Part shown: piece by piece, positions 9,001 to 56,812 of the stretch
Position numbering within the stretch: position 1 is the first letter of the stretch
Layout of the letters: the number at the start of each line of letters is the position of its first letter
Assembly: GCA_964511315.1 (NCBI GenBank)
Contig: CAZEFF010000007.1
Span: forward strand, 1 to 60,219
Source of the DNA: an uncultured bacterium
Lineage (GTDB): Bacteria; Omnitrophota; Omnitrophia; Omnitrophales; Aquincolibacteriaceae
DNA: 60,219 nt
Direction of reading: 5' to 3'
Made by a program: the position numbers and the translations under genes
Notes under the pieces: model-generated
The model's input: the letters and a program-made list of their open reading frames with translations, nothing else
Database searches by the model: none
Told to the model about the DNA's origin: nothing

Positions 9001-10054
9001 TAAATTGTGGTATTCGACAGATTCCGGATCAACGTTCCCCAATGTGATCATCGCTTCGACGGCTAATACCGGCACCTATAATTGGACTGTGCCGGACGCG
9101 ATTTCTACTTTAGTGCGCGTCCGTGCCGGAAGCGCGACGGATGTGGACGCTTATGACGATTCGAATGCTGATTTGAAAATCCGCGGCGCTTTCCATGTCG
9201 TGACTCCGGATGGAGCCGAACAGTGGAAAATCGCGCAGAATTCGAATATTACATGGACGACGACAGGTACGATTTCCAATGTGAAACTTTATTATTCTAC
9301 CGATTCAGGAAGCAACTTTTCGAATGTGATTATCGCTTCAGTGGCTAACACGAACAGCTATACTTGGAATATCCCGGACGTTCCTACGACGATGGCTCGT
9401 GTCCGTGTGGAAAATCCGTTAGATGCGACGGTTTTTGACGATTCCGATGCCGATTTCAAAATTCAAGGTAACTTTATCATGGTTTCCCCGAATGGCGGAG
9501 AATCCTGGATCGTAAATTCTTCTCACAATATCACTTGGGATTGGGGCGGAACCATTCCGAACGTGAAGCTGACGTATTCAACCGACAGCGGATTAAATTA
9601 TAATAGCACGATCAGCGCTTCCGCTCCGAATGGCTCAGGCAGTGCCGGAACCGCGAATTATGCTTGGACAATTCCTGATAATATCTCAACCCAAGTCCGC
9701 GTAAAAATCGAAGACCCGAATGACGCTACGGTCAACGATTCTTCAAACGCGAACTTCAAAATTCGCGGGGATTTAGTTTTAACATCGCCTAATGGCGGTG
9801 AACGCTGGGTAACGAATGAGACTCACGCGATTACATGGAATACCACTGGAACTATCCCTAATGTGAAGTTGACTTATTCTCATGATGACTTCTCAACATC
9901 AACAACCATTATGGCCTCGGTCTCTAACACGAATACCTATAATTGGGTTGTTCCTGATCCGGGAGTGAATAATATTCCGAAGACAACAAAGGTTCGCGTT
10001 GAAGATGTGAACGACTCGAATGTTTTTGACGACTCCGACGCGGCGTTTAACATT
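5..10054 (+). repeat. Tandem array of 35 Ig-like coding repeats with a 7-domain higher-order period (~2.05 kb)
   Basis: Counted PNGGE/PDG/PAG/PVG motifs. Equivalent W-K-V codons at 230, 2273 and 4331 give periods of 2043 and 2058 nt. Confidence 0.9.
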
Positions 10055-13068: not shown

Positions 13069-13815
13069 ATGATCTGGGGTGTTATATTATTTCAGGGCAT
13101 TATCTTTGCCGTGCTCATATTTGTCCTCCGGCATTTTATGCAAGGACATGTTTCCGGCGCGGTTGGACATTTAGAGAAGCTAAATGAAGAGTTGCTAAAG
13201 CAGCAGGCGGAGCTAAAGGCTAAAATTTCAGAAGCGGAAAAAGAGTATGATTCGAAGATGGCGAAAGTTCAGCAGGAAGTCACTGCGAGGCAAAGCCAGG
13301 TTCGGCAGGAAGCGAATAAAACTCTGGAAGAAGCCAGGGCGCGCGGGCAGGAGGAGCGGGAAAAACTCATTAAAGAAGCGATTGATACGCGCGACAAAAT
13401 CAAGAATGAAATTATGGTTCAAATGGAAGAAAAAGCCGTGGATTACTCAAAGGAAGTCATCGCGCAATTTCTATCCGGCGACATCCGGAAATTTGTTCAT
13501 GAAACGCTTGTCAAAGAAGTCCTTGATGGAATTAAGGATATGCCGATTGAACATTTTCAAATTGATAGCCCAACAGCAGAATTCATATCCGCCGAACCTT
13601 TAAGTGACAGTCTTAAAAAACAGATCTATTCTGTTTTAAAAGAAAAGATTAAGCAGGATGTTCAATTTAAAGAGGATGTGGATTCTGCGCTTGTCGGCGG
13701 AATTATTCTTAAGTTTGGAAGCTTTGTTATTGACGGCAGCCTTGCGAACCGCCTCAAAGAAGCAACGTCAAAAATAAAGGTGGAAACAAAACGGAAGTAT
13801 TTAGGGAAAACCTAG
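13069..13815 (+). CDS. atpF: F-type ATPase b subunit fused to a delta/OSCP-like C-terminal domain
   Basis: N-terminal TM, long charged coiled coil, and C-terminal SAEPLS...VDSALVGGIILKFGSFVIDGSLANRL typical of delta. Confidence 0.85.
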   Translation: MIWGVILFQGIIFAVLIFVLRHFMQGHVSGAVGHLEKLNEELLKQQAELKAKISEAEKEYDSKMAKVQQEVTARQSQVRQEANKTLEEARARGQEEREKLIKEAIDTRDKIKNEIMVQMEEKAVDYSKEVIAQFLSGDIRKFVHETLVKEVLDGIKDMPIEHFQIDSPTAEFISAEPLSDSLKKQIYSVLKEKIKQDVQFKEDVDSALVGGIILKFGSFVIDGSLANRLKEATSKIKVETKRKYLGKT

Positions 13816-30104: not shown

Positions 30105-30809
30105 TTGATCCTTAATGCCGAGATAATCAGCACTATGTCAAAGAATGGTCTCATTCAGCTTTCCATGCACCGGCCCTTAAAAGTCTGTTCGCCAGGATTG
30201 CTCCGCAAAGCTAAAGCGCATTTTAAAAAGTATGACTTTCTTAAGCTCCCCAAATTCTTTTCTGAACATACGCTTTCATTTATAAAAAATACGCTTCCAA
30301 AAGCTTCGTTTGAACATAAGCGGCACAAAGGGATCGCGACCGAGCTTTGCATGAAAACAAATCTGCTGATGGGGATTTTGACTTATCTGGTGAATGATTA
30401 TGAGCTGTTCCGGTGGATCCAAGAGGTTACGGGAAGCAGACCCCTTGGATGCTTTACCGGAAGGGTTTACAGAATGAAACCGGGTGATCATTATGACAGC
30501 TGGCATGACGACTGGCGCTATGGCCGAAAGATTGCGCTGAGCGTTAATTTCAGCGAAGAGATTTATGAGGGCGGCTGCCTCATGTTGAGGCATAAAAAGA
30601 GGCCCAAGCATATTGTCCATGTCACTAATGCAGGATTTGGTGACGCGATTATTTTTCGTTTGGGGGCTGAATTGGAGCATCAGGTTTCCGGTTTGAAAGG
30701 GACCGCGGCAAAAACCGCATACGCGGGATGGTTCCGCAGTTATCCGGATTATTTTAAAAATGTCAAAAAAATAAAAATTATCCCGTCAAAGTTTACCGCA
30801 AAGCGATGA
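30105..30809 (+). CDS. 2-oxoglutarate/Fe(II)-dependent oxygenase (prolyl-hydroxylase-like)
   Basis: HxD (WHDD) ... distal His (EHQV), YEGGCL, terminal GWF; start uncertain (TTG 30105). Confidence 0.75.
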   Translation: MILNAEIISTMSKNGLIQLSMHRPLKVCSPGLLRKAKAHFKKYDFLKLPKFFSEHTLSFIKNTLPKASFEHKRHKGIATELCMKTNLLMGILTYLVNDYELFRWIQEVTGSRPLGCFTGRVYRMKPGDHYDSWHDDWRYGRKIALSVNFSEEIYEGGCLMLRHKKRPKHIVHVTNAGFGDAIIFRLGAELEHQVSGLKGTAAKTAYAGWFRSYPDYFKNVKKIKIIPSKFTAKR

Positions 30810-32074
30810 CTCTTTTTTTGGTTTTTCTCCTCGCGCTGATTCCCCGTGCAATTTATTTATTTTTGTTTACGGATCTAACCATTAATCCAGGTTGGAGTGC
30901 TCATTGGAACTTGGCCACCGGGATTTTGAAATATGGAACTTACGGTTATCACGGAGAACGCGTTACTAATATTGAACCGGGATATTCCTTTTTTCTGGCG
31001 TTGGCGCGGGGCCTATTTCAGGAGCGGTTGACCGGTGTTCTGCTTCTTCAGGTTGTTGTTGCTGCACTTGGCGCGGTAGGGCTCTTCCTTTTAGCTATGG
31101 AGCTCTTTGGCAGCCGTAAGACTGCTTGGATAAGCGCCTCCTTATATGCCTTCTATCCCTATTTAATTGGACAGTCTGTCTCTTTGATTGAAGTGCCCAT
31201 TTTTATGACTTGCCTGATAGGCGCGGTTTATTTTTATGTTAAAGCGGATAAAGAAGCAAAGGAGACTGTTCTCGGAGGTGTTTTAACAGGAATGGCTTTT
31301 GGGGTCACGATCCTCGTTCGGAGTATGGTTTTGCCGGCCGCAGCCGTGTGTTTCTGTTTGTTCGCGATCAAAAGGAAGATGCTAACCTTTGTTTTCTCTT
31401 TACTGGCATTCTTAATTGTGGCGGGGCCATGGTTTTCGCGAAGCCACAGTGTTGACGGTTCCTGGATTCCGCCAAGAGGAGGATGGAATTTTCTACAGGG
31501 TAATTGCCCGTATTCCGATAAAATTATTCCTCAGTATAATCCTGATTTGCTCGATGCTTATGTCTCCGAACTTTTAGAAAAAGAAAGGCCGGATTTAATT
31601 AAAGTAGAAAGAGAAACAGACGCCGCTGAATCCGACCGATTTTTTAAAGAGAAGGCTTTTTCATTTATAAAAGAACATCCGTGGCGGACGGCTTTGCTGA
31701 AATTTAAAAATATTCTGTATTTGTTTTATCCTCGGATTGTTCCATTTAAATCCATGAATGAAAACACGCGGATCCATTTCCTGGGGCCTGAAGAATTTGA
31801 GGTTGAAAATATTCCAAACCGCGGGATTTGGCGGGAATTATCTTATAGTCTCACGTATACGCCTATTTTTTTATTAGGTCTTGGCGGGCTTTATTTAAGG
31901 AGAAAAGAAATTTGGCAAAACTTGGTTTTTTATGCAGTTATGATTAACTTTACGGCCGTTTACGCCCTTTGCTGGCCTGCTACGCGGCTGAGGGTCCCTA
32001 TGGATTTTATTTTCATGCTGTTTGCTGCTTACACATTAAGCGTATGGAACAAAAAAAACTGCCCGGCGGATTGA
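30806..32074 (+). CDS. GT-C fold (ArnT/PMT-like) membrane glycosyltransferase
   Basis: Multiple TMs, IEPGYSFFL loop, YAFYPYLI, RLRVP near the C-terminus. Confidence 0.65.
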   Translation: MTLFLVFLLALIPRAIYLFLFTDLTINPGWSAHWNLATGILKYGTYGYHGERVTNIEPGYSFFLALARGLFQERLTGVLLLQVVVAALGAVGLFLLAMELFGSRKTAWISASLYAFYPYLIGQSVSLIEVPIFMTCLIGAVYFYVKADKEAKETVLGGVLTGMAFGVTILVRSMVLPAAAVCFCLFAIKRKMLTFVFSLLAFLIVAGPWFSRSHSVDGSWIPPRGGWNFLQGNCPYSDKIIPQYNPDLLDAYVSELLEKERPDLIKVERETDAAESDRFFKEKAFSFIKEHPWRTALLKFKNILYLFYPRIVPFKSMNENTRIHFLGPEEFEVENIPNRGIWRELSYSLTYTPIFLLGLGGLYLRRKEIWQNLVFYAVMINFTAVYALCWPATRLRVPMDFIFMLFAAYTLSVWNKKNCPAD

Positions 32075-43995: not shown

Positions 43996-45444
43996 ATGAA
44001 ATTGCCGGCGCTTAACAGAGATAGCTGGTTTTTTTTAATCGGAGCCGCGGTTTTTACCCTTCTTTATTTCTTGTTTTATCCTTCAATCTATTCTTTTCGC
44101 GATGAGGCGAGTTATCTTTCGATGGCAACTTTGCTGAAATCGGGAAGGTTTTTTATTGGCGGATATGATATCCCATTTCAGTCTTGGGTAGAATCCAGGG
44201 GGCATCGTGCCTTTGACTACCCCATTGGGATGCCTCTCTTTCTCCTTCCTTTTATATATGCGGGCTGGCAGGCAGGTTTTGGGGGGGTGCTGCTTTGCCA
44301 TCTTGCGGGTGCCTTATATTTTGATAGGCTCTTGAAGGTTTTTAAGCTGAATCAGCCCTTTCTTTTCATGATTTATCTCTTTTACCCGGCGTCGGTATTT
44401 TATTCCCGGACCCTTATGAGTGATATCCCAGCCGCTGTCTGTTTTTTAGCGGGTGTTTATTATTACTATACAAATGACCGTTTGCTTAACTGGAAGATGG
44501 GCCTTTTTTTCGGGCTTAGCATTTTGCTGCGGCCAAGCGGATTGATTTATGAATTGCCGTTTCTCGCGGTGGGATTTTTTAGAAACGTGAAAAGGGACAA
44601 AACAGCTGCCGGTCTTTTTGCTGCGGCTTTCACGTGCCCGCTGGCGATATTGTTCGCGGCTCAATATTTTTTTTACGGGGCCCCGTTTGTGCCCGCGCAT
44701 GTGCTTCAATTCTCTCAGTTCAGTAATTTTTCCATCCATTATTTCTTGAGAAATGCGAAGCACTATCTGCCCGCGCTTATTTTGTCTTATCCTTTTATGC
44801 TTTTCGCGCCGTTAAAAGTTTCCGTAACGAAAAAAACTGAAATGCTTAGCGCTGTCTGTGTGGGGCTTGTTTTTTTTAGTCTTTATTCATTTCATGATCA
44901 ATTTCAGACGCCGTTGCAAACATGGATTTTAGGCGTGCGTTTTTTGTTGCCTGCCGTCGCTCTTTTGCTGCTTATGTACGCGGAAGTGCTGAATTGTGCT
45001 TTTGGTTTTTTAAAGCAGGAGCAGCGGATTTTATTTTTTTTGGTTTTGATCTTCGGATTGATTTGTTCCGGCTTTTATATTCATAAGCGGCACCAATTAG
45101 TTCTTCAAGATCAGTTGGCCATGAAGAAAGCCATTTATGAGGTGACGCCCGAGAATGCTATTCTGCTATACGACTTAAATGCGGCTGAACTTATGCAGGC
45201 ATCCTGGGGAAGACGGCAATATGTTGATTGGAGAATTTGGGGTAAAGATATGACGTCTTTTCTCGAAAGCGCAGATTTTAATCGGGGTGTTTTTGTTGTT
45301 AAGCGGGATGGTATGCCGGGAGATTTTAGTTTGGAATGGATGTCTGATAGTGATATCGATAGAATAAGAAAACGGTATCAAGTGAGACAAACCGCGAAAC
45401 AAGGCGGCGTGGAGATTTTTCAGTTTTATGAACCAAATCGTTAA
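43996..45444 (+). CDS. GT-C-fold membrane glycosyltransferase
   Basis: SFRDEASY acidic loop, YPIGMP, many TMs, GVRFLLP. Confidence 0.65.
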   Translation: MKLPALNRDSWFFLIGAAVFTLLYFLFYPSIYSFRDEASYLSMATLLKSGRFFIGGYDIPFQSWVESRGHRAFDYPIGMPLFLLPFIYAGWQAGFGGVLLCHLAGALYFDRLLKVFKLNQPFLFMIYLFYPASVFYSRTLMSDIPAAVCFLAGVYYYYTNDRLLNWKMGLFFGLSILLRPSGLIYELPFLAVGFFRNVKRDKTAAGLFAAAFTCPLAILFAAQYFFYGAPFVPAHVLQFSQFSNFSIHYFLRNAKHYLPALILSYPFMLFAPLKVSVTKKTEMLSAVCVGLVFFSLYSFHDQFQTPLQTWILGVRFLLPAVALLLLMYAEVLNCAFGFLKQEQRILFFLVLIFGLICSGFYIHKRHQLVLQDQLAMKKAIYEVTPENAILLYDLNAAELMQASWGRRQYVDWRIWGKDMTSFLESADFNRGVFVVKRDGMPGDFSLEWMSDSDIDRIRKRYQVRQTAKQGGVEIFQFYEPNR

Positions 45445-47482
45445 AGCCAAATCGGGGTGGGTGCTAGGGATCCTAGTGGGGTTATTTATTCTCTTGAGGC
45501 TGACTGTTCTGTTAAGCGGCGGGCTCCACGCGTTCGAAGACGAAGAGCTTTACCGCGGTACGATTGGCAGGGAAGTGATTAATGGTCTCAAGATGCCCCT
45601 TTTGGACTATCAGGCGGATCATTATTCGGGCGGGTCTTTGCTTGTCGGAGCTGCTTCGGCGCCTTTCTTTCTTTTATTTGGGCCAAGTTTATTTTCGCTG
45701 AAACTCTCTCCGCTTTTATTTGCCCTCATGACGCTTCTTGTTCTATGGAATTTCATGAAAAGAAATTTTGGTTTTTCGGCAGCAGTTTTGGCCGCGCTTC
45801 TTTTTGTTTTTGCCCCGCCGTCTTTTGTCCGACTTTCACTTGTTGCTATGGGCTTTCATTCTGAATCCATTCTATTTACGATTTTGAGTTTTCACTTTTT
45901 TTATGTTTATTTCTACGGCGGGCGGAAACCGCTTTTTTTATTTTTATTCGGCGTTGCATCGGGGCTTGGTTTTTGGTTTTGTCACATCGCGATTATTGCT
46001 CCTTTCTCGTGTATTCTCGCTTGGCTGGTTCAAGACAGCCGTTCTTTGAGCAGCCGAAGAAATGTTATGACCTTGGGAATGGGTGGTTTGGTAGGGCTAG
46101 CACCATGGATTTTTTATAATTTGACGCATGGATTTGAAGGGCTTGGATTTATTTTGAAAGTGCTTTTGCGGTTCAGAGGGCATTCAGGCGGCTTGGAACC
46201 GTCGGCATTCAGTTTTGATTTTAACAGGCTTTTTCTCTTGGTCTTCCGTGCCGTCCCAATGTCGTTTGCTTTTGAAGATGTTTGGTTTCTCCCTCGAAAC
46301 ATTACCGGTCTTGTTTATTCTGTAGCGCTGCTCTTTCTTGTTGCTCCGATTTACTTTTTTGGGTTCAAAGGTCTATTTATGAAGGAAAAGGACCATGCTC
46401 AATCAACATTATTGCCATTACTGCTTATGCCGCCTGTTTTTATCGCGGTTTATTGGCTGAGCTCGGTTGAAATTAATGCGGTGACTGAATCAAACTTATT
46501 TTATCTTTTTTTTGATGACTGCCGGTATTTCATACCGCTGCATTTTTCGTTGCTGATGCTCGGGGCAATTGCCGCTGTTAGGGGGAAGGGAAGATGGTTT
46601 TTTTCTATTTTAATCGTGTTTGGCCTCTACGGTTTGTCGGGGATCTCATTTGTGGAGCCATGGGGGAGCGTTCTCCGTTACAAGGGGTATTCCTACGCGC
46701 AACTTGGCTCAATCCGCGGGCATATTTGGCCTAAACACTATCCTAGCTTCGAATCTTATCTAAAAGACCTTAACCGCTACCGGATGCCTGACCGATATTA
46801 TGTTTCCTGGTATTCATTTTATGGACTTCAATTTGAAAAAGACCTCGCGAGCCGGGAAAAGGTTAAGAGGCTGATGGATGCCGTGCCGCCATCGCTTATG
46901 CCGCAAATCGTCCAGGGTATTGGCTATGGGATTGGTGCTCAGCAGGCCACTGATTTTGATCCCGATAGCCCTTGGATGGCGGCCATTCCGGGGAAATATC
47001 ATAAGTTTTTTTATTTGGGATTTGCTGATGCGGCAATGGGAGGCGGAATCGCGACGATTGATCAGGTTCTCGAATTTGGAGATAGACTTTCCGCTGAAGA
47101 ACGAGGGGGCTTTTATTTTTTGCTGGGGCAAATTTGTCCTTATGAAAAGAAGCCGGGCGGTTTGGATGCTATTTTAAAACATAGTGCCCCGGGGATTGTC
47201 CCTAATTTCAAATCTTTTTTTCAGGGAATAGGGATCCGCTGCTCAATTAATTGGACGCTTGAAGGTTACGCTTTTCCGAAGGCTGTTAAGAATTTGGGGT
47301 TTGAAATTCCGGCTGAATTTCTTGATGATTTATATTTTGGGGTGGGATGGGGAATACGGACGCAGTTTGCCGAAGACAGAATCCGTGGGCTGGATGTTCT
47401 AAAAGAAATTCCGGGAGATCGAAGAGCGCAGGCTCTTGCGGGGTTCGAGGCATGTGAAAAAACCTATGCGATTCCGGTCTAG
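45428..47482 (+). CDS. GT-C-fold membrane protein with C-terminal helical repeats (paralog)
   Basis: FEDEELYRG, YQADHYSGGS, GFHSES, CRYFIP, YKGYSY, YFGVGWG. Confidence 0.7.
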   Translation: MNQIVKAKSGWVLGILVGLFILLRLTVLLSGGLHAFEDEELYRGTIGREVINGLKMPLLDYQADHYSGGSLLVGAASAPFFLLFGPSLFSLKLSPLLFALMTLLVLWNFMKRNFGFSAAVLAALLFVFAPPSFVRLSLVAMGFHSESILFTILSFHFFYVYFYGGRKPLFLFLFGVASGLGFWFCHIAIIAPFSCILAWLVQDSRSLSSRRNVMTLGMGGLVGLAPWIFYNLTHGFEGLGFILKVLLRFRGHSGGLEPSAFSFDFNRLFLLVFRAVPMSFAFEDVWFLPRNITGLVYSVALLFLVAPIYFFGFKGLFMKEKDHAQSTLLPLLLMPPVFIAVYWLSSVEINAVTESNLFYLFFDDCRYFIPLHFSLLMLGAIAAVRGKGRWFFSILIVFGLYGLSGISFVEPWGSVLRYKGYSYAQLGSIRGHIWPKHYPSFESYLKDLNRYRMPDRYYVSWYSFYGLQFEKDLASREKVKRLMDAVPPSLMPQIVQGIGYGIGAQQATDFDPDSPWMAAIPGKYHKFFYLGFADAAMGGGIATIDQVLEFGDRLSAEERGGFYFLLGQICPYEKKPGGLDAILKHSAPGIVPNFKSFFQGIGIRCSINWTLEGYAFPKAVKNLGFEIPAEFLDDLYFGVGWGIRTQFAEDRIRGLDVLKEIPGDRRAQALAGFEACEKTYAIPV

Positions 47483-47491
47483 AGGAGAAAT

Positions 47492-49492
47492 GTGAATAGA
47501 AGAATACGGCTGTTCTTTACGGGCTTGCTTTTTTTGCTTTGTGTTTTGCGGCTAGGAATTATTCTCACATCCATTGAACGCGTGTCTCATTACGATGAAC
47601 TGGATCTTGGAACAATTTCGCGGGAATTAGACCGCGGATTGAAAGTGCCGTTCGAGTTTTTTCAGCTGGATGCCTATTCCGGAGAATCCTTTATTTTAGG
47701 GCCTATGGTGTTGCCGTTCGCCAAGCTCTTTGGCCAAAATTTATTCGCAATTAAAATGGTTCCGTTCTTTTTTTCGATTTTAATGCTTGGGGCCGGCTAT
47801 GCCTTTATGCTGAGGTATTTCGGGACCAAATCCGCAATTGGGACCGGACTATTGTTCGTTTTTTCTCCGCCAGGATTTGTGCAACTCTCATTGGCTGCCA
47901 TGGCCGGACATTCTGAAGCCTTCTTTTTTGGTTTTCTCGCGCTGTTCTGTTTTTACGAGTTTCTCTTTAAACAAAAATCTTTGGTTCTGCTCGCCTTGTT
48001 CGGGGCCTTATCGGGTTTCGCTGTCTGGTTTTATTACGCGAATGCCATCATCGTATTTTCATGCTTAGCCGTTTTTTTCATTACGGACCGAAAGTTCTTT
48101 TTTAAATCATTGCCTCTTTTTTTTGCCGCGTTTCTAATCACTTTCTCGCCATGGATTATCTCAAATCTTCGTAATGACTTTTTAGGGCTTGAGCTTGTCA
48201 GTGAGAATTTGGCCGGGTTTGATTGGCCTCGCGTGATCTATACGCTTAAAAAGCCGATCAGATTTTTTATTATGAATCTGCCCCTTTCATTTTTCACTAC
48301 CCCGGTATTTGGAATTCCTAAGGCCTTTTCCTCTTACGTTTATTATCTTCTTTTACTGCTTTTGGTTTTGCCCGTGGTTTTTGCTCAAACCAAAGGTTTG
48401 TTAGAGAGACGAATTGACGGCCGATTTTTATTTTTTCTAATCTATCCTCTGATTTATACGGCATGCATCACTTTTTCCCACTTTGATGTGGATAGGGATA
48501 TTGGGTTTGTTGGGTACCGTTATGTTACCCCGATGGTATCCGTTCTTCTTTTGCTTGGAGGAGTCGGCTACGCTTTTTTCGAAAATCGTAGAGTTTTTTT
48601 TTACGGGCTGCTGCTTTTGGGGTTTGCCGGGCAAGCAGGCATGCTTTTTCAAGAGCCCTTCGCCCGTGCTTTTCAATACCAAGGATATTCCTACTATCAG
48701 TTGGGAACACGCTGGCACTTTAATCTTGCCTGGGCTTTTAAAAACTATGAAGATTTTCAGCAAAAAACCGCTCATTTTTCAGTGAATGAGCGGCGATACA
48801 TTCTCTGGGGCATGGCGCAAATGGCTCAATGGAATGAGCAAGAGATGCTTTTTGAATCGCGTCAGAAGCAGGGAGATGATCTTAAGGTCTACACGATGAC
48901 GGCTAAGGAACCCGAAGAGTACGCACCCTTTTCCTATGAATGGCTGGGTGGGCTGCCGCGATTTCGTCCTCCCGAAGGTCTTGAAAGCTTCCGTCAAATC
49001 AGCGAAACCATTCCCATTTCTTCTAAGAAATATTTTTGCCAAGGCTGGTTATGGGGAACGGAGACCTCGCGAAGTTTTATCGACTGCCCGGACTGTTATA
49101 TCGGAAAAGATGTTTGCGATATTCATCAGCTTGACCGCGTGATGGTCTATCTTTTTGATCTTTATCAGGATAATGGGCCCCGCCGTATGAAGCAAATTTC
49201 TCGTTTTGGCAGCGAAGAAAGAAAGCTGGCTTATCGAGGGGTAGGGCATACGCTTTTTCTTACCGAAAACATTCTGAATCCATTATCGAAATCACCGATG
49301 CCAATTTATACGGGCCCTATTGCGAAAGAAGATATGGCCGAAGTTTATTGGGGGGTGGGCTGGGCGATCCGCGAAAAATTTCGTGAAGACCGCATTCGTG
49401 CTATGGATTGGATTGACCGGCTTCCGGCAGAGGCTAAAGATTCGGCCGCAAAAGGTTTAAAGGATTACGATCAATGGTACATGCTGAATTAA
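47492..49492 (+). CDS. GT-C-fold membrane protein with C-terminal helical repeats (paralog, HYDE type)
   Basis: ERVSHYDELDLG, FQLDAYSGES, AGHSEA, GYRYVTP, YQGYSY, YWGVGW; GTG start. Confidence 0.7.
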   Translation: MNRRIRLFFTGLLFLLCVLRLGIILTSIERVSHYDELDLGTISRELDRGLKVPFEFFQLDAYSGESFILGPMVLPFAKLFGQNLFAIKMVPFFFSILMLGAGYAFMLRYFGTKSAIGTGLLFVFSPPGFVQLSLAAMAGHSEAFFFGFLALFCFYEFLFKQKSLVLLALFGALSGFAVWFYYANAIIVFSCLAVFFITDRKFFFKSLPLFFAAFLITFSPWIISNLRNDFLGLELVSENLAGFDWPRVIYTLKKPIRFFIMNLPLSFFTTPVFGIPKAFSSYVYYLLLLLLVLPVVFAQTKGLLERRIDGRFLFFLIYPLIYTACITFSHFDVDRDIGFVGYRYVTPMVSVLLLLGGVGYAFFENRRVFFYGLLLLGFAGQAGMLFQEPFARAFQYQGYSYYQLGTRWHFNLAWAFKNYEDFQQKTAHFSVNERRYILWGMAQMAQWNEQEMLFESRQKQGDDLKVYTMTAKEPEEYAPFSYEWLGGLPRFRPPEGLESFRQISETIPISSKKYFCQGWLWGTETSRSFIDCPDCYIGKDVCDIHQLDRVMVYLFDLYQDNGPRRMKQISRFGSEERKLAYRGVGHTLFLTENILNPLSKSPMPIYTGPIAKEDMAEVYWGVGWAIREKFREDRIRAMDWIDRLPAEAKDSAAKGLKDYDQWYMLN

Positions 49493-51495
49493 ACAGGCAA
49501 AAAAGCAAGGAACTTTTTATTCTTGTTGCCGCTATTTCGGCTTATATTTTCTTTAGATTCCTGACGTTGCTCACGGCCATTGAAAATGTTTCATGGACTG
49601 AGGAATTAGGTATCGGAACCATTGCCCGGGAACTTATCCTGGGTCTTAAAAAGCCGTTTTTCGCTTATCAAATCGACTGCTATGCCGGAGAATCTCTGAT
49701 TTCGGCGTTACTCACAGCGCCATTTTTTAAAGTCTTCGGCTCCCATTTGCTTGTTTTAAAAGCGGTGACGCTCATTTGTTCAGCGCTTACCGTGCTCACC
49801 GCGGCCAATTTTCTTAATCGGCATTTCGGGATTAAAGCCGCTGGCTGGACGATTTTCTTTTTAACTTTTTCACCGCCCGCGTTTACCGCGCATTCGTTAA
49901 TTCCCATGAATGGGCACTCAGAATCGCTGCTGTGGTCAGTACTAATGCTGACTGCTTTCTACGAGTTTATTTTTTCTGAACAGAAGAGTGCTGTTTTTTT
50001 GTGTTTATTTGGAGCGCTAGGCGGTTTCTCATTCTGGTTTTATTACGGATGCGGAATTGCATTTGCGGTATGTCTGATGGTTTGGTTTTTTACAGATCGA
50101 TCCTCGCTCTTTTCCAAGAAGGGTGTATTCGCGATTTTATCATTTTTGGTTGGATTTAGCCCTTGGCTCATTGTTGGGCTAGCGCATTCTTTTGACGGCG
50201 GCAGGTATTTATTTTCAATTTTTCGGAACCCTGATCTTCTCAATTTCGCGCGGTTTTTTACGCGCTTATTTCAGCAGCTATTTCTTTCCCTTCCTCGGGC
50301 ATTCGCATTTCTTCCCCCAGATAATCAATGGCGGGAACTTGGCGCTTACGGATATTTCATATGCTTCATTCTGATATTGGCGTCTTTTTTCCGATTTAAA
50401 GGGCAGAATAAAAAGAATCTTTTCTTTCTAATTTATCCGCTCACATTTTTATTCACGTACGCTATCACGGATTTTGCGATACCCCAGGAATATCCTCAGG
50501 GAACCGTTGAGTTTCGGTACTATACGCCGCTTTACTTTTTCGGGGTGATGCTGCTGGGGCTCTCTTTGAATTCTTGGAATCCAAAAAAGTGGTTTCTTTA
50601 CCCGCTTCTCATTTTTAGCTTAACAGCACAAGGGAATGTTTTTTTTAAAGAGGCATTTGCTGAAGGGATGCGCTACAAAGGCTATTCTTATATCGAGCAT
50701 GGCGTCCGATGGGAAACGGCTGCCAGTAGCGGGAGCCCCTTTTCTGGAGTTGTTAAAAGAGCTTTCGCGTTTCCAGATCCTGAAAGCCGATATTTTTTTT
50801 GGGGCAGGGTTATCGGATGGGAAGGGAATTCCCGCGAGAAAAATCCGCATGATGATCTTTTAAACGAATCTTCGATGCGCGAGATCCCTCTTTCTTGGCG
50901 GCCCCTTGCCGTTGAGGTGATATCATCCTTCCTGACTTTTCATCACGACAAATCAGTTAAAGAGCTGCTCCGGATTGCGGACGCGGTACCTGCCGAATTG
51001 AGAGGGTATTTTTACAAAGGGATCTTTGAAGATTTTATGAGCCGTTCGATTGGGGAAATTCTTGAGGATCCAAAAATTCTAGATCCTGTGGGAACTGAGA
51101 ACCAAAACTGGTTTTATTGGAGTCTTGGAAGCCATTTGGGATACCAGTTTTTTGAAAGTAAAAAAATCAATCCCGATGTCATGGTATTTATTAACCGGGC
51201 AAATACGGAGGCGCAGAAATGGTTTTACCGAGGTCTCGGTAATGCGGCGTTTGGCACGGATCAGCCTACTTTTTTTATTAATACAGATTTTATGCGTCAG
51301 TCAGAAGAAGTGCGGAAAATTGTGCCGAGTGGCTACGAAGGTGATTTCTATTGGGGGGTTGGCTGGGTCATAAAGCTTTTTTTCCGTGAAGACCGTTCCC
51401 GCGCGCGCGATTGGCTGCAGAGAGTCCGTAATCCTTTCAGAGAAAGCGCTGCTCAAGGTTTTGCGGCTTGTGAGGTCTGGTATGGTCTTAACTGA
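49474..51495 (+). CDS. GT-C-fold membrane protein with C-terminal helical repeats (paralog, SWxE type)
   Basis: VSWTEELGIG, YQIDCYAGES, NGHSES, FRYYTP, YKGYSY, FYWGVGW. Confidence 0.7.
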   Translation: MVHAELNRQKSKELFILVAAISAYIFFRFLTLLTAIENVSWTEELGIGTIARELILGLKKPFFAYQIDCYAGESLISALLTAPFFKVFGSHLLVLKAVTLICSALTVLTAANFLNRHFGIKAAGWTIFFLTFSPPAFTAHSLIPMNGHSESLLWSVLMLTAFYEFIFSEQKSAVFLCLFGALGGFSFWFYYGCGIAFAVCLMVWFFTDRSSLFSKKGVFAILSFLVGFSPWLIVGLAHSFDGGRYLFSIFRNPDLLNFARFFTRLFQQLFLSLPRAFAFLPPDNQWRELGAYGYFICFILILASFFRFKGQNKKNLFFLIYPLTFLFTYAITDFAIPQEYPQGTVEFRYYTPLYFFGVMLLGLSLNSWNPKKWFLYPLLIFSLTAQGNVFFKEAFAEGMRYKGYSYIEHGVRWETAASSGSPFSGVVKRAFAFPDPESRYFFWGRVIGWEGNSREKNPHDDLLNESSMREIPLSWRPLAVEVISSFLTFHHDKSVKELLRIADAVPAELRGYFYKGIFEDFMSRSIGEILEDPKILDPVGTENQNWFYWSLGSHLGYQFFESKKINPDVMVFINRANTEAQKWFYRGLGNAAFGTDQPTFFINTDFMRQSEEVRKIVPSGYEGDFYWGVGWVIKLFFREDRSRARDWLQRVRNPFRESAAQGFAACEVWYGLN

Positions 51496-54122: not shown

Positions 54123-54167
54123 TGTTAGTTATTGCAATACTAACATTTGTTAGGTATACTTCGTTAG
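54123..54167 (+). promoter_or_regulatory. Sigma70 promoter with overlapping inverted-repeat operator candidates
   Basis: TTGCAA (54132-37), 17 nt, TATACT (54155-60). CTAACA-tt-TGTTAG at 54140-53; TGTTAG at 54123; CGTTAG at 54162; palindrome TATTGCAATA at 54130-39. Confidence 0.65.
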
Positions 54168-54212: not shown

Positions 54213-54425
54213 ATGAGCGGATTAACAGATAGACAGAAAGAAGTTCTTAGCTACATCGGCACCTACGCTGGTTCCCACGGTTTTCCTCCTACTCTTCGTG
54301 AAATTGCCCTGCATTTTAGTATCGCGCCGACATCGGTGCTTGGGCATTTGCATGCGTTGGAAAGCAAGGGGTTTATCAGACGTCAGCCGGCAAAATCGCG
54401 CTGTTTGGAAATTGTAAAGCGTTAG
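54213..54425 (+). CDS. LexA-like winged-helix DNA-binding domain only (70 aa)
   Basis: LTDRQKEVLSYI...GFPPTLREIA...TSVLGHLHALESKGFIRR...SR; stop codon before any linker or S24 peptidase domain. Confidence 0.85.
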   Translation: MSGLTDRQKEVLSYIGTYAGSHGFPPTLREIALHFSIAPTSVLGHLHALESKGFIRRQPAKSRCLEIVKR

Positions 54426-54492
54426 ATCAGCTAAGAATCGAAGATCTGTCAGCCCTGAGGTCGCAAGCTTTTCTGTGACTGAGAGGGCGAAG

Positions 54493-54769
54493 CCCCGTTC
54501 GAGACAAATTTATGTACTATGTTTACGTGATACAAAGCGTGAAAGATAACAAGTGGTATACAGGAGTTACAGTTGATTTACGGAACCGATTTAAACAACA
54601 CCAGGCGGGTGAAGTGTCGTCGACGAAAAGCCGAGGTCCTTTCAAGTTGATCTACTACGAAGCGAGCATTGATCGAGAAGACGCCTATGCCCGAGAGCTG
54701 TATTTGAAATCTGGGTTAGGGAAACGGTATCTTAAGAAACGTTTAAATCGGTTCCTGTCTCAAACGGGG
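54493..54769 (+). mobile_element. 277-bp GIY-YIG cassette 1 bounded by terminal inverted repeats
   Basis: CCCCGTTCGAGACA (54493-506) / TGTCTCAAACGGGG (54756-769), 13/14 complementary; flanked by direct repeat CGAAG. Confidence 0.75.
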
Positions 54770-54784
54770 CGAAGCCTCGTATAA
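54512..54784 (+). CDS. GIY-YIG nuclease (UPF0213-like), copy 1
   Basis: YYVYVIQ...WYTG.T.DL..R...H...G...TK.RGP..L.YYE...ARE..LK. Confidence 0.9.
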   Translation: MYYVYVIQSVKDNKWYTGVTVDLRNRFKQHQAGEVSSTKSRGPFKLIYYEASIDREDAYARELYLKSGLGKRYLKKRLNRFLSQTGRSLV

Positions 54785-54844
54785 ACGATGCAGAATTTTG
54801 AAACTCGAAATCAAACAATAAAACCTAACCACGAGGTCTAAAAA

Positions 54845-55558
54845 ATGAAAGTTGTTATTTTATGCGGAGGTAAGGGGACGCGGCTTAAAGAAAAAACGGA
54901 GTCCATGCCTAAGCCTTTAATCGAAATCGGGGGGAGATCAATCCTTTGGCATATTATGAATATTTATAAGGCTCAGGGATTTAAAGAGTTTGTCCTATGC
55001 CTGGGATATAAAGGGCAAATGATCCGGGAATGTTTTGAAAAAGATATGAATAAAGAAGGATGGAAAATCGAATTTGCGGAAACGGGGGAAGATACTCAGA
55101 CGGGCGGACGCGTTAAAAAAATCGAGTCTTTCATTCGTGATGAAAATTTCATGCTGACTTACGGAGACGGCGTTTCGGATATTGATTTGAGCCGGCTCGT
55201 TCAACATCACCAAAAGCACGGCAAAATCGGAACCGTGACAGCCGTGAATCCGCCTTCGCAGTTTGGCCTTCTTGAAATTCAGGGAAATTCTCATGTGAGT
55301 TCTTTTCGTGAAAAACCCACGACAGATCAGTGGATCAATGGGGGGTTCTTTGTTTTTAAAAAGGACTTTTTCAAATATTTAACTGAGGAAGATGTGCTCG
55401 AGAAAAAACCGTTAGAACGTTTGGCGAAAGAAGATCAGCTTGTTGCTTTTCAGCACCGTGGTTATTGGAAGTGCATGGATACCTATAAAGATACAATCGC
55501 GCTTAATGAAATATGGGGCAGTGGTAAGGCTCCATGGGCCCCGTTAGAGACAAACTAA
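54845..55558 (+). CDS. rfbF: Glucose-1-phosphate cytidylyltransferase
   Basis: ILCGGKGTRL...PKPLIEIGG, LCLGYKG, TQTGGRVK, LTYGDGVSD, WKCMDT, KAPW. Confidence 0.88.
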   Translation: MKVVILCGGKGTRLKEKTESMPKPLIEIGGRSILWHIMNIYKAQGFKEFVLCLGYKGQMIRECFEKDMNKEGWKIEFAETGEDTQTGGRVKKIESFIRDENFMLTYGDGVSDIDLSRLVQHHQKHGKIGTVTAVNPPSQFGLLEIQGNSHVSSFREKPTTDQWINGGFFVFKKDFFKYLTEEDVLEKKPLERLAKEDQLVAFQHRGYWKCMDTYKDTIALNEIWGSGKAPWAPLETN

Positions 55559-55815
55559 TGTACTATGTCTATGTTCTGCAGAGTTTGAAAGATAAAAGGT
55601 GGTATACGGGATTTACGGGTGATTTGCGGAACCGATTTAAGGAGCATCAATCGGGCAAAGTGTCTTCAACAAAAGGAAGAGGTCCGTTTCGTTTGATTTA
55701 TTATGAGGCAAGTCTGAATCAAAGGGATGTATCAAACCGGGAAAAATATCTTAAAACAGGGATGGGGAAACGATATTTAAAAAATCGATTAAATCGGTTC
55801 CTGTCTCTAACGGGG
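55539..55815 (+). mobile_element. 277-bp GIY-YIG cassette 2 bounded by perfect 14-bp inverted repeats, inserted in the rfbF 3' end
   Basis: CCCCGTTAGAGACA (55539-552) / TGTCTCTAACGGGG (55802-815), a perfect complement; same length as cassette 1. Confidence 0.8.
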
Positions 55816-55827
55816 TGGAAAGGATAA
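55558..55827 (+). CDS. GIY-YIG nuclease (UPF0213-like), copy 2
   Basis: 63/86 aa identical to copy 1 by hand count; ATG overlaps the rfbF TAA. Confidence 0.9.
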   Translation: MYYVYVLQSLKDKRWYTGFTGDLRNRFKEHQSGKVSSTKGRGPFRLIYYEASLNQRDVSNREKYLKTGMGKRYLKNRLNRFLSLTGWKG

Positions 55828-55828
55828 T

Positions 55829-56812
55829 ATGGGTAAATCAAATCATTTTTGGTATGGCCGTCCGGTCCTTGTAACCGGTATTACCGGGTTTGTTGGGGCG
55901 AATCTTGCGGGAGCTCTTGTGCGTAAAGGAGCCCGCGTGGTTGGAATTTACCGGGATGATGTCGCGGGTTCCGCGCTCGAAGTACTTGGTTTAAAAGAGC
56001 GGGTTACGCTTGTCCATGGTGATTTGCGTGACATTCAAATAATTGAACGGACTTTGAATGAATATTCTATTGAGATTGTATATCACTTAGCAGCTCAGGC
56101 GATAGTTGGAGTCGCGAATCGGTCGCCCATTGCGACATTCCAATCGAATATTGAAGGGACATGGAATTTGCTCGAAGCTTGCCGGCATCAGCAAGGCATC
56201 GAGGCGATTGTCGTTGCTTCGAGTGATAAGGCTTATGGTTCTCACAAAAAACTGCCATACGATGAGACCTTTCCGCTTCAGCCCGAATTTCCTTATGACA
56301 CATCCAAGGCTTGTGCCGATTTAATCGCGCGGAGTTATTTCAAAACTTACGGCCTTCCAATCGTGATTACGCGTTTCGCGAATATCTACGGTCCGGGAGA
56401 TATGAATTTTTCAAGAATCATTCCAGACACCATCCAGAATATTTTGAAGGGGGAGGCTCCGATCATTCGAAGTGACGGAACGCCTGAGCGGGATTATTTA
56501 TACGTCGAAGATGTCGCGGGCCTTTATCTTCTTCTTGCGGAAAACATTGAAAAAGCAAAAGGAGAAGTTTTTAATGCCGGGCATAAAAAACCGTACAGCG
56601 TGAAATTCGTTGTCGACGCACTGCTTAAAATTGGCGGAAAGAAAAAGCTGAAGCCGGTCATTGAAGGAAAAGGGAAGCTGCATGGAGAAATTGACCGGCA
56701 GTGGATGGACGGAGCTAAAGTAAAAAAAATACTCGGCTGGGAGCCCAAAGTATCTCTGGGGGCGGGTTTGAAAAAAACTTTTGCATGGTATAAAGCTTGG
56801 CTGAAGCCCTGA
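55829..56812 (+). CDS. rfbG: CDP-glucose 4,6-dehydratase-like NAD-dependent epimerase/dehydratase
   Basis: VTGITGFVG, HLAAQAIV, SSDKAY, PYDTSKA, NIYGPGD; adjacent to rfbF. Confidence 0.75.
   Translation: MGKSNHFWYGRPVLVTGITGFVGANLAGALVRKGARVVGIYRDDVAGSALEVLGLKERVTLVHGDLRDIQIIERTLNEYSIEIVYHLAAQAIVGVANRSPIATFQSNIEGTWNLLEACRHQQGIEAIVVASSDKAYGSHKKLPYDETFPLQPEFPYDTSKACADLIARSYFKTYGLPIVITRFANIYGPGDMNFSRIIPDTIQNILKGEAPIIRSDGTPERDYLYVEDVAGLYLLLAENIEKAKGEVFNAGHKKPYSVKFVVDALLKIGGKKKLKPVIEGKGKLHGEIDRQWMDGAKVKKILGWEPKVSLGAGLKKTFAWYKAWLKP

Follow-up and report, generated by a model that had tools for sequence, protein, structure and literature searches.

What are the two 277-bp cassettes, each bounded by terminal inverted repeats (TIRs) and each filled by a single gene for a small GIY-YIG nuclease, that lie within a 60,219-bp stretch of contig CAZEFF010000007.1 from an uncultured member of the Omnitrophota (the whole stretch is hereafter termed the window), and what moves them? 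A sequence-only reading of this DNA had proposed an element resembling an insertion sequence (IS) or a repetitive extragenic palindromic (REP) sequence that is mobilized by its GIY-YIG nuclease, or one that carries the nuclease as cargo. Mobility was borne out by filled and empty sites and by gene-less derivatives identified in other genomes, while the role of the nuclease as the mover is what we infer. We consider it probable that the cassettes are copies of a minimal autonomous DNA transposon of the IS type that is mobilized by its own GIY-YIG nuclease.

Screening of the window with the pattern CCCCGTTNGAGACA at zero mismatches revealed exactly four sites arranged as two inward-facing pairs: 54493-54506 (+) with 54756-54769 (-), and 55539-55552 (+) with 55802-55815 (-). 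When up to two mismatches were permitted, six matches were identified against 1.0 expected, and none of 100 shuffles of the window yielded six. Each cassette measures 277 bp from repeat to repeat and 769 bp separates the two, so that the pattern matches and the bounds drawn from similarity agree with the earlier description of two cassettes of equal length with near-identical ends. The terminal repeats of cassette 1 pair at 13 of 14 positions (with one C.A) and those of cassette 2 at all 14. The cassettes are about 73-74% identical in DNA sequence, and their similarity ends exactly at the outermost bases of the repeats. One intact open reading frame (ORF) with 86 element-encoded codons fills each cassette. 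The 5' terminal repeat stops 5 nt upstream of the nuclease ATG, and the 3' terminal repeat is itself coding, supplying the last codons (..LS(L/Q)TG) in both cassettes. A second, internal inverted repeat begins about 90 nt into the element, where GGAACCGATTTAA(AC) pairs with (GT)TTAAATCGGTTCC, the latter strand directly adjoining the 3' terminal repeat. Cassette 1 is flanked on both sides by an exact 5-bp direct repeat, CGAAG. No further full or miniature copies were detected in the window beyond the two cassettes. The features of the cassettes, in which P1 and P2 denote the helices formed by the terminal and internal repeats, are as follows.

54493 to 54769, plus strand: cassette 1, complete 277-bp element, intergenic between an ORF resembling a LexA DNA-binding domain and an rfbF-like gene; bounds from similarity to cassette 2 and to the elements of other genomes.
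54488 to 54492, no strand: left target-site duplication of cassette 1, CGAAG, identical to 54770 to 54774; both adjoin the element.
54770 to 54774, no strand: right target-site duplication of cassette 1, CGAAG, read from the sequence.
54493 to 54506, plus strand: 5' terminal inverted repeat of cassette 1 (5' strand of P1), from pattern, repeat and fold analysis.
54756 to 54769, plus strand: 3' terminal inverted repeat of cassette 1 (3' strand of P1), encoding ..SQTG, from pattern, repeat and fold analysis.
54582 to 54596, plus strand: 5' strand of P2 in cassette 1, codons R-N-R-F-K including the catalytic Arg; 15 of 15 positions complementary, covarying across the family.
54741 to 54755, plus strand: 3' strand of P2 in cassette 1, codons R-L-N-R-F, adjoining the 3' repeat; from complementarity and covariation.
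54512 to 54784, plus strand: GIY-YIG ORF 1, 90 amino acids (86 element residues and four from the flank up to the first stop); Pfam PF01541, E 4e-17.
55539 to 55815, plus strand: cassette 2, complete 277-bp element, after a Trp codon three codons before the end of the rfbF-like gene and just upstream of an rfbG-like gene.
55535 to 55538, no strand: left flank of cassette 2, TGGG, an imperfect copy of the right TGGA (3 of 4 positions).
55816 to 55819, no strand: right flank of cassette 2, TGGA, read from the sequence; the start of TGG AAA GGA TAA.
55539 to 55552, plus strand: 5' terminal inverted repeat of cassette 2, through which rfbF reads as ..APLETN*; from pattern, repeat and fold analysis.
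55802 to 55815, plus strand: 3' terminal inverted repeat of cassette 2, codons ..SLTG; from pattern, repeat and fold analysis.
55628 to 55640, plus strand: 5' strand of P2 in cassette 2; 13 of 13 positions complementary.
55789 to 55801, plus strand: 3' strand of P2 in cassette 2, from complementarity with 55628 to 55640.
55558 to 55827, plus strand: GIY-YIG ORF 2, 89 amino acids; PF01541, E 3e-13; start codon overlapping the new stop of rfbF (TAATG), stop codon 1 nt ahead of the rfbG ATG.

The most direct evidence of movement came from a single orthologous site. In Kaiserbacteria-like genomes murA is followed by a small gene, of which we compiled 80 orthologues; 75 had enough upstream sequence for comparison. 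Of the 75, three have a full element placed precisely at the start codon, 71 are empty, and one (locus L286) has a 118-nt gene-less derivative. Empty alleles, which the sequence-only reading had named as a check, are thus common among relatives. The empty site reads ..ATCGAATCGAC-ATGAAATCC (also given as ..CAACATGAAATCC), and the filled site at locus L239 reads ..ATTGAATCAAC-ATGAA-(T CCCGTT...AACGGG A)-TGAAATCC, or in shorter form ..CAACATGAA(T..A)TGAAATCC. The filled allele differs from the empty allele by the element and a 4-bp duplication, TGAA. At two otherwise empty Kaiserbacteria sites (L300 and L301, around positions 1185-1205) the sequence ..GAATGAACGGG|ATGAAACCC contains an isolated AACGGG-ATGAA motif, which may have arisen by chance, by decay of an element or as the footprint of an excision.

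Duplications of this kind recur across the family. Direct repeats of at least 3 nt flank 46 of 92 full copies, where about 14 would be expected from shuffled pairing of flanks, and exact 4-nt repeats flank 29 of the 92 against 8.4 expected. The typical duplication length is 4 bp (range 3-6), and the target consensus is A|TGAA, with TCAA, TTAA, TTTA, CTAA, TGGA and TGAG also observed. Among the loci examined, we identified 19 derivatives of 26-126 nt that lack an ORF and are bounded by the same repeats, 15 of which are flanked by exact 4-nt duplications of varied sequence; the smallest consists of the two repeats joined by a 4-nt loop, and in many miniature copies GAAA/TTTC replaces GAGA/TCTC at both ends. 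These derivatives, all from outside the window, have the properties of miniature inverted-repeat transposable elements (MITEs) in that they are short, lack an ORF, share repeats and a duplication with the full elements, and occur in several copies per genome.

Several of these loci are noted individually. Locus L286 carries two similar gene-less copies (1083-1200 and 1634-1745, of 118 and 112 nt) with the GAAA/TTTC end variant and one additional stem, CGCGGACGC/GCGTCCGCG. Each copy coincides with the start codon of a different gene, the two genes lying some 0.55 kb from each other, and each has duplicated TGAA. The minimal 26-nt hairpin (L083:3872-3897), two repeats and a 4-nt loop, is flanked by TGAA. 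Three miniature copies of 36-59 nt (L092:825, 1682 and 1920) fall within 1.2 kb of a Pirellulales contig.

Copies were also found at unrelated loci of the same genome. On a Saccharibacteria contig (L087), unrelated sites separated by 5 kb hold two copies of 97.9% identity. A second pair of copies has 90.6% identity; the median identity between genomes is 71%. Tandem copies have a single TGA(A) in common between them. One such tandem (L007:2763-3161) comprises a full element, a single TGA and an internally deleted 119-nt copy that retains both repeats and the first ~30 codons. Collectively, repeats at the exact ends, a short target duplication, presence and absence at orthologous sites, and copies at unrelated loci are what is observed of transposons with TIRs, and these genome comparisons show that the element family is mobile. 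A recognized transposase class (DDE, DEDD, HUH, Ser or Tyr) is the one hallmark that the element lacks; its sole ORF encodes a GIY-YIG protein.

The element is widely distributed. A scan for both exact ends 240-270 bp apart identified at least 120 genome contigs, so that the ends do occur elsewhere at the same spacing, as the sequence-only reading had asked. Among them were 92 distinct copies of 272-281 bp that carry the same GIY-YIG ORF in the same register. A protein search recovered 943 relatives, mostly of 86 residues and 65-74% identical, labeled in databases as Omnitrophota, Parcubacteria, Giovannonibacteria, Levybacteria and others, and loci fetched by protein alone belonged to Thermodesulfobacteriota, Desulfobacteraceae, Scalinduaceae, Nitrospirota, Lloydbacteria and Saccharibacteria. 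The family is spread across many bacterial phyla, including those of the Candidate Phyla Radiation (CPR) with tiny genomes. The consensus ends form a 14-15-bp repeat, (T/C)CCCGTTAGAGA(T/C).. paired with ..(A/G)TCTCTAACGGG(A/G), and the C-terminus that the repeat encodes, FLSLTG, shows conservation of 90% or more among 35 homologues. Among loci chosen by protein, both inverted repeats were kept, with compensatory differences, in 8 of 9 with at least 59% identity, and repeats were absent from small GIY-YIG genes below about 55% identity. The elements with repeats thus form one clade inside the standalone GIY-YIG proteins.

As possible vectors, viral contigs and phage records were searched and gave no pattern hits and no phage match; a plasmid collection gave one distant match only (41% identity). 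Loci L040-L043 encode a more distant GIY-YIG homologue (45% identity) in which no repeats were seen. They were considered as another mobile subfamily and set aside as uninformative, since all are contained in a larger repeat (4.4 kb or more), of which one Bacillota metagenome-assembled genome has at least four copies with 97-99.7% identity.

The two copies in the window are diverged at the level seen between genomes. Synonymous sites are saturated (proportion of synonymous differences, pS, 0.70; of nonsynonymous differences, pN, 0.16), and the ratio of nonsynonymous to synonymous substitution rates (dN/dS) is ~0.09, with a family median of 0.14. Because synonymous sites are saturated and the DNA identity of about 74% is close to the between-genome median, the two cassettes are separate, old insertions and not a local duplication, in agreement with what had been read from the window alone.

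ORFs 1 and 2 score 62.8 and 50.3 bits against PF01541 (cutoff 22.6) and their products are 73% identical, as had been estimated, with the catalytic residues retained: Y5, Y16, G18, R26, H30 and E50 are invariant in 35 homologues. An AlphaFold2 model (mean predicted local distance difference test score 92) retrieved with Foldseek, in this order, UPF0213 protein BH0048 (1ZG2), Slx1 (7cq2, 4xlg, 6sei), 1YWL (EF2693) and then the catalytic domain of I-TevI, and a phmmer comparison with 1ZG2 gave an E value of 4e-10. In NCBIfam the protein matched only a group I intron endonuclease model, below threshold (21-22 bits against a cutoff of 56). A long basic C-terminal helix (residues 68-85, ..GKRYLKNRLKRFLSLTG) is additional to the domain and shows conservation across the family, with the repeat coding for its end. 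Sequence and model together suggest that the protein is a minimal GIY-YIG nuclease of the Slx1/YhbQ type, and the substitution pattern indicates that it is under strong purifying selection and predicted to be catalytically intact. Standalone prokaryotic GIY-YIG members have been described as minimal domains, with mobility unmentioned (PMC1564403).

Beyond its protein, the element is under selection for a fold. In an alignment of 90 elements with 8 nt of flank per side (A2), RNAalifold predicted essentially two helices, the terminal P1 and the internal P2, and one isolated pair (columns 92-110). P2 joins codons 24-28 to codons 77-81. In the specified P1 and P2 structure 92.8% of cells are paired, and changes on both sides of a pair were counted in 217 cells against 67 +/- 7 in column shuffles (none of 500 attained 217) and 17-35 when the partner was slid by 1-3 columns. 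Compensatory changes occur in 9 of the 15 P2 pairs, including columns 115-283 (AU 47, GC 34, CG 4), 118-280 (CG 69, UA 14, UG 4, AU 3) and 121-277 (UA 35, CG 25, GC 11). Column 115 corresponds to the third base of a Lys/Asn codon and column 283 to that of an Arg codon, so that synonymous third positions pair with each other (AAA/AAG/AAC opposite CGT/CGC/CGG). These synonymous sites lie 170 nt apart, and protein coding cannot account for their covariation. In P1, covariation is seen at the freely variable outermost pair (UA 56, CG 25, AU 2, GC 2) and at the freely variable pair after GAGA (UA 56, CG 26, AU 5). The pairing is conserved in gene-less copies as well, suggesting that the stem itself matters.

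Well-paired columns contain 48 G.T and 15 A.C cells, counts that are phylogenetically non-independent; this excess points to the sense strand as the folding strand. For the two window copies, the minimum free energy and centroid RNA folds both contain P1 and P2 (z -2.4 and -3.4). With DNA parameters P1 persists (z -3.5) and P2 of cassette 2 is lost. No Rfam family matched the window at gathering thresholds, and a permissive search of 54300-56000 (E <= 5) was equally negative. Collectively, covariation shows that a sense-strand fold has been selected that would bring the flanks of the element together. P1 and P2 may act in mRNA or in a single-stranded DNA intermediate of transposition; the G.U asymmetry, the better folding of P2 as RNA than as DNA, and co-orientation with host genes slightly favor mRNA.

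Insertion sites share a relationship to host reading frames. In 67 of 87 copies, a co-oriented host ORF of at least 60 codons begins no more than 15 nt from the 3' end of the element, compared to 18% of random positions. In 44 of the 87, the host ATG consists of the last base of the element, A, and the duplicated TG, and the nuclease stop TGA overlaps it as ATGA. Targeting of stop codons was considered and rejected, as an upstream ORF ends at the junction in only 23 of 87 copies. Given 67 host gene starts against 23 ends, the favored surviving site is the start codon. Of 30 elements that keep a copy of the ATG in the left flank, 18 have it in the reading frame of the nuclease; as a constant start of the nuclease this ATG was therefore only partly borne out, and it accounts for the 95-residue 'MNPVRD..' gene calls in databases. 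No obvious Shine-Dalgarno motif was apparent by eye at the 3' end of the element, and scans for promoters and terminators in and near the cassettes gave no signal above shuffled expectation.

How might such an element move? In the reading that we consider probable, the nuclease would bind the conserved end sequence in duplex form or in the folded P1 stem (the end being the same either way), and would nick or cut with a 4-nt stagger at the boundaries of element and flank and at the target. Host ligation and gap filling would finish the move and produce the duplication. A preference for junctions like that of Slx1 would fit cutting at the base of P1, and the 4-bp duplication argues for a double-stranded target. 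The promoterless element would ride on host transcripts and be translated partly from host signals, and the host gene behind the rebuilt ATG would be translated by termination-reinitiation coupling at the ATGA overlap. In mRNA, P1 and P2 would mask the start region of the nuclease and would compact the inserted stretch that separates the host ribosome-binding site from the rebuilt ATG. We advance more tentatively a stronger form of this reading that seems to us possible, in which the 86-residue nuclease would represent a new catalytic class of transposase acting on a folded, single-stranded 277-bp element whose P1 is held by P2, making it the smallest autonomous transposable element known, one that docks on and rebuilds host start codons.

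A number of observations weigh against mobilization by the nuclease or against present activity. The protein comprises only the catalytic domain and one basic helix in 86 residues; we know of no GIY-YIG enzyme that performs strand transfer, and transposase activity of the nuclease would presumably require host ligation and repair. A perfect 4-bp duplication is found in only about a third of gene-bearing copies, the duplication of cassette 2 matches at only 3 of 4 positions, and the copies in the window are anciently diverged. One of the young copies that are 97.9% identical (L087:6932-7212) has a poor flank repeat, TGCA against TGAG; its left flank CAT pairs with the rebuilt ATG. An identical protein (P0085) found on 24 contigs was considered as a trace of recent jumps and rejected, because all are one locus upstream of ruvX. 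Most copies look old and fixed, and activity may be rare or copies may be partly domesticated. The P1 core was the search pattern, and its invariance in the large set reflects how that set was collected. The non-independence of the G.T and A.C counts and the division of the evidence on folding between RNA and DNA count on the same side.

The alternative that survives best, which we regard as unlikely, is a non-autonomous element whose ends are moved in trans by a transposase encoded elsewhere. The nuclease would then be cargo, kept for a benefit to the element or to its host such as repair or biased repair at the donor site. That gene-less derivatives move, or once moved, with ends alone is what such an element would do, GIY-YIG chemistry is hydrolytic without known strand transfer (PMC1564403), and 86 residues is very small for a transposase. 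However, gene and ends are inseparable, as the 3' repeat is the last codons of the ORF, and the same unit of gene and ends recurs in many phyla, including those with tiny CPR genomes, with strong purifying selection on the protein in every copy. No known transposase or recombinase Pfam family was identified among the window ORFs scanned (nearly all those of at least 120 amino acids), as the sequence-only reading had stated of DDE, HUH and recombinase genes, and no partner gene was noticed beside the elements among the few loci whose neighbors were inspected.

It is very unlikely that the cassettes are free-standing homing endonuclease genes copied by recombinational repair in the manner of phage T4 seg or I-TevI. 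GIY-YIG is a classic homing endonuclease fold, the sub-threshold NCBIfam match is to a group I intron endonuclease, and insertions between genes do little harm, as they would for a homing gene. Such genes lack terminal inverted repeats, target duplications and recognition of their own DNA (PMC1564403), whereas repeats and duplications are present here. Moreover, the insertion sites are many unrelated genes with only ~5 bp in common, miniature derivatives exist, the protein has no DNA-binding domain able to read a long target, Rfam detected no intron RNA core in the window, and no copy was found in the phage collections searched.

Least probable of all is a domesticated YhbQ-like host repair gene with regulatory mRNA hairpins whose copies arose by duplication and horizontal transfer: the branch is that of standalone Slx1/YhbQ/UPF0213 proteins annotated as nucleases or repair proteins, many copies are stable at one locus across samples, and a sense-strand fold is compatible with an mRNA element, but this account is largely refuted by orthologous sites that differ by element and 4-bp duplication, and is further opposed by gene-less derivatives that share ends and duplications, near-identical copies at unrelated sites, and similarity between copies that stops sharply at the repeats.

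The host genes that surround the two cassettes are as follows.

54845 to 55558, plus strand: rfbF-like host gene, glucose-1-phosphate cytidylyltransferase; PDB 1tzf, E 2e-65, aligned through ..GKAPW; Pfam NTP_transferase; last codons replaced by the insertion.
55829 to 56812, plus strand: rfbG-like host gene, resembling CDP-glucose 4,6-dehydratase; Pfam GDP_Man_Dehyd and Epimerase; directly downstream of cassette 2.

Cassette 1 is an intergenic insertion with a CGAAG duplication. Just upstream of it, a 70-residue ORF (54213-54425, +) encodes a LexA-type DNA-binding domain only (PF01726, E 1e-20), without the S24 peptidase domain; a promoter-like site was noted at 54132-54160. At cassette 2, rfbF now reads into the 5' repeat (..APLETN*) and nuclease ORF 2 terminates at the old rfbF stop. 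The Salmonella rfbF structure aligns through ..GKAPWKT, two residues short of its end, and in the closest relatives found rfbF ends in APWKVWS* or APWKQ* and directly adjoins or overlaps rfbG without an element. Because the rfbF of these relatives ends in APWK.. and abuts rfbG, the sequence TGG AAA GGA TAA to the right of cassette 2 is read as the displaced original end of rfbF (W-K-G-stop). Cassette 2 would then be an old insertion three codons ahead of the end of rfbF, with translational coupling on both sides. No same-species empty allele of the window's own two sites was found in the genome and metagenome collections, in which the closest rfbG relatives are 56-65% identical; these show only the ancestral, element-free rfbF-rfbG arrangement.

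The region of the window is chromosomal, with genes for ATP synthase, for a type IV pilus or type II secretion system, and for polysaccharide synthesis. Other features of the window were noted in passing. A giant ORF of 3907 residues (5-11728, +) contains many Kre9/KNH-like Ig-like repeats and a reelin-subrepeat-like stretch, and its product is probably a huge surface protein. ATP synthase b-subunit and delta (OSCP) domains are combined in a single ORF of 248 residues (13069-13815, +). Three tandem paralogous genes for PMT_2 (ArnT-like) glycosyltransferases of ~670 residues (45428-51495, +) lie in the polysaccharide biosynthesis region, and a fourth, shorter PMT_2 (ArnT-like) gene is found at 30806-32074. 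The segment 34547-43874 (-) encodes two asparagine-synthase-like proteins, a Transglut_core3 transglutaminase-like protein, NTP_transf_5 and two large ORFs without a Pfam match, a set that by analogy recalls lasso-peptide or other peptide-maturation clusters.

Should the nuclease be the transposase, its catalytic class would be categorically new; if it drives mobility, GIY-YIG would join the folds that move DNA transposons and the size limit of an autonomous element would fall below 300 bp. CPR/Patescibacteria, Omnitrophota and further uncultivated phyla are rich in this family, whose members are routinely annotated there as 'excinuclease', 'putative endonuclease' or repair proteins, and many of these annotations, together with inferred 'horizontal transfers of repair genes', would need to be re-read. 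GIY-YIG domain proteins are listed among the genes that Patescibacteria apparently donate to other bacteria (PMC12455944), and a mobile element would explain this donation. The element also offers a clean natural case of nucleic-acid structure selected within a protein-coding gene through synonymous covariation, and an insertion strategy that keeps a host operon translated through a rebuilt ATG and a stop/start overlap (ATGA). A compact nuclease that recognizes a short DNA hairpin or repeat could serve as a tool, and miniature derivatives could mark genome dynamics at the level of strains in organisms that cannot be cultured.

Comparison with known systems places the element among, and apart from, several. 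No known IS family was found to explain the ends, nor any Rfam family, a possibility that the sequence-only reading had raised against itself. No prokaryotic element that combines a GIY-YIG gene with inverted repeats and target duplications emerged from the literature searched, in which the phrase 'GIY-YIG transposase' is likewise absent; subscription journals were thinly covered and an earlier description is possible. We file the element as a new, superfamily-level form of insertion sequence with MITEs, and it would be the smallest protein-coding transposon known in bacteria. It resembles bacterial TIR insertion sequences and MITEs (such as IS630/Tc1-mariner-type elements and, as MITEs whose transposase is unknown, the Correia/CREE elements of Neisseria) in its terminal inverted repeats and short duplication, in the single ORF that fills it, and in its copies at unrelated sites, its filled and empty alleles and its gene-less miniatures. 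In contrast to an IS, it encodes a GIY-YIG nuclease and not a DDE, DEDD, HUH, serine or tyrosine enzyme, and it has a coding 3' repeat, covarying ends and an internal helix, no promoter, and a habit of docking on start codons. The smallest known IS is ~0.6-0.7 kb, and at ~277 bp the element is less than half that size.

IS200/IS605 and REP/RAYT elements are likewise very small, with ends that act as folded single strands and scattered short palindromic derivatives. However, they use an HUH Y1 transposase and local subterminal hairpins and have neither terminal inverted repeats nor target duplications, whereas the present element pairs over a long range from end to end and makes a 4-bp duplication, and HUH (Y1) was not found. 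I-TevI and the Seg proteins of T4 share the GIY-YIG domain, the position of a selfish gene between or at the ends of host genes, and the use of host or neighboring expression signals; they differ in that they have no inverted repeats or duplication, recognize one long target with a separate DNA-binding domain, and spread by homologous repair. The best matches in sequence and fold are Slx1/YhbQ/YazA/UPF0213 proteins (1ZG2, 1YWL; Slx1-Slx4 7cq2, 4xlg, 6sei), which have the same minimal domain and the same Tyr, Tyr, Arg, His and Glu. Slx1 cuts branched or folded DNA at junctions, and the folded element would present such a substrate. The Slx1/YhbQ family is undescribed as mobile (PMC1564403, PMC7017083), and the element protein differs in its extra basic C-terminal helix and in having neither a zinc finger nor an Slx4 partner. 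Among established transposable elements, a GIY-YIG domain is known to serve mobility of the element itself only in the Penelope-like retroelements of eukaryotes. Its role there is limited to nicking the target for the reverse transcriptase to which it is fused, whereas the element described here is bacterial and carries no reverse transcriptase.

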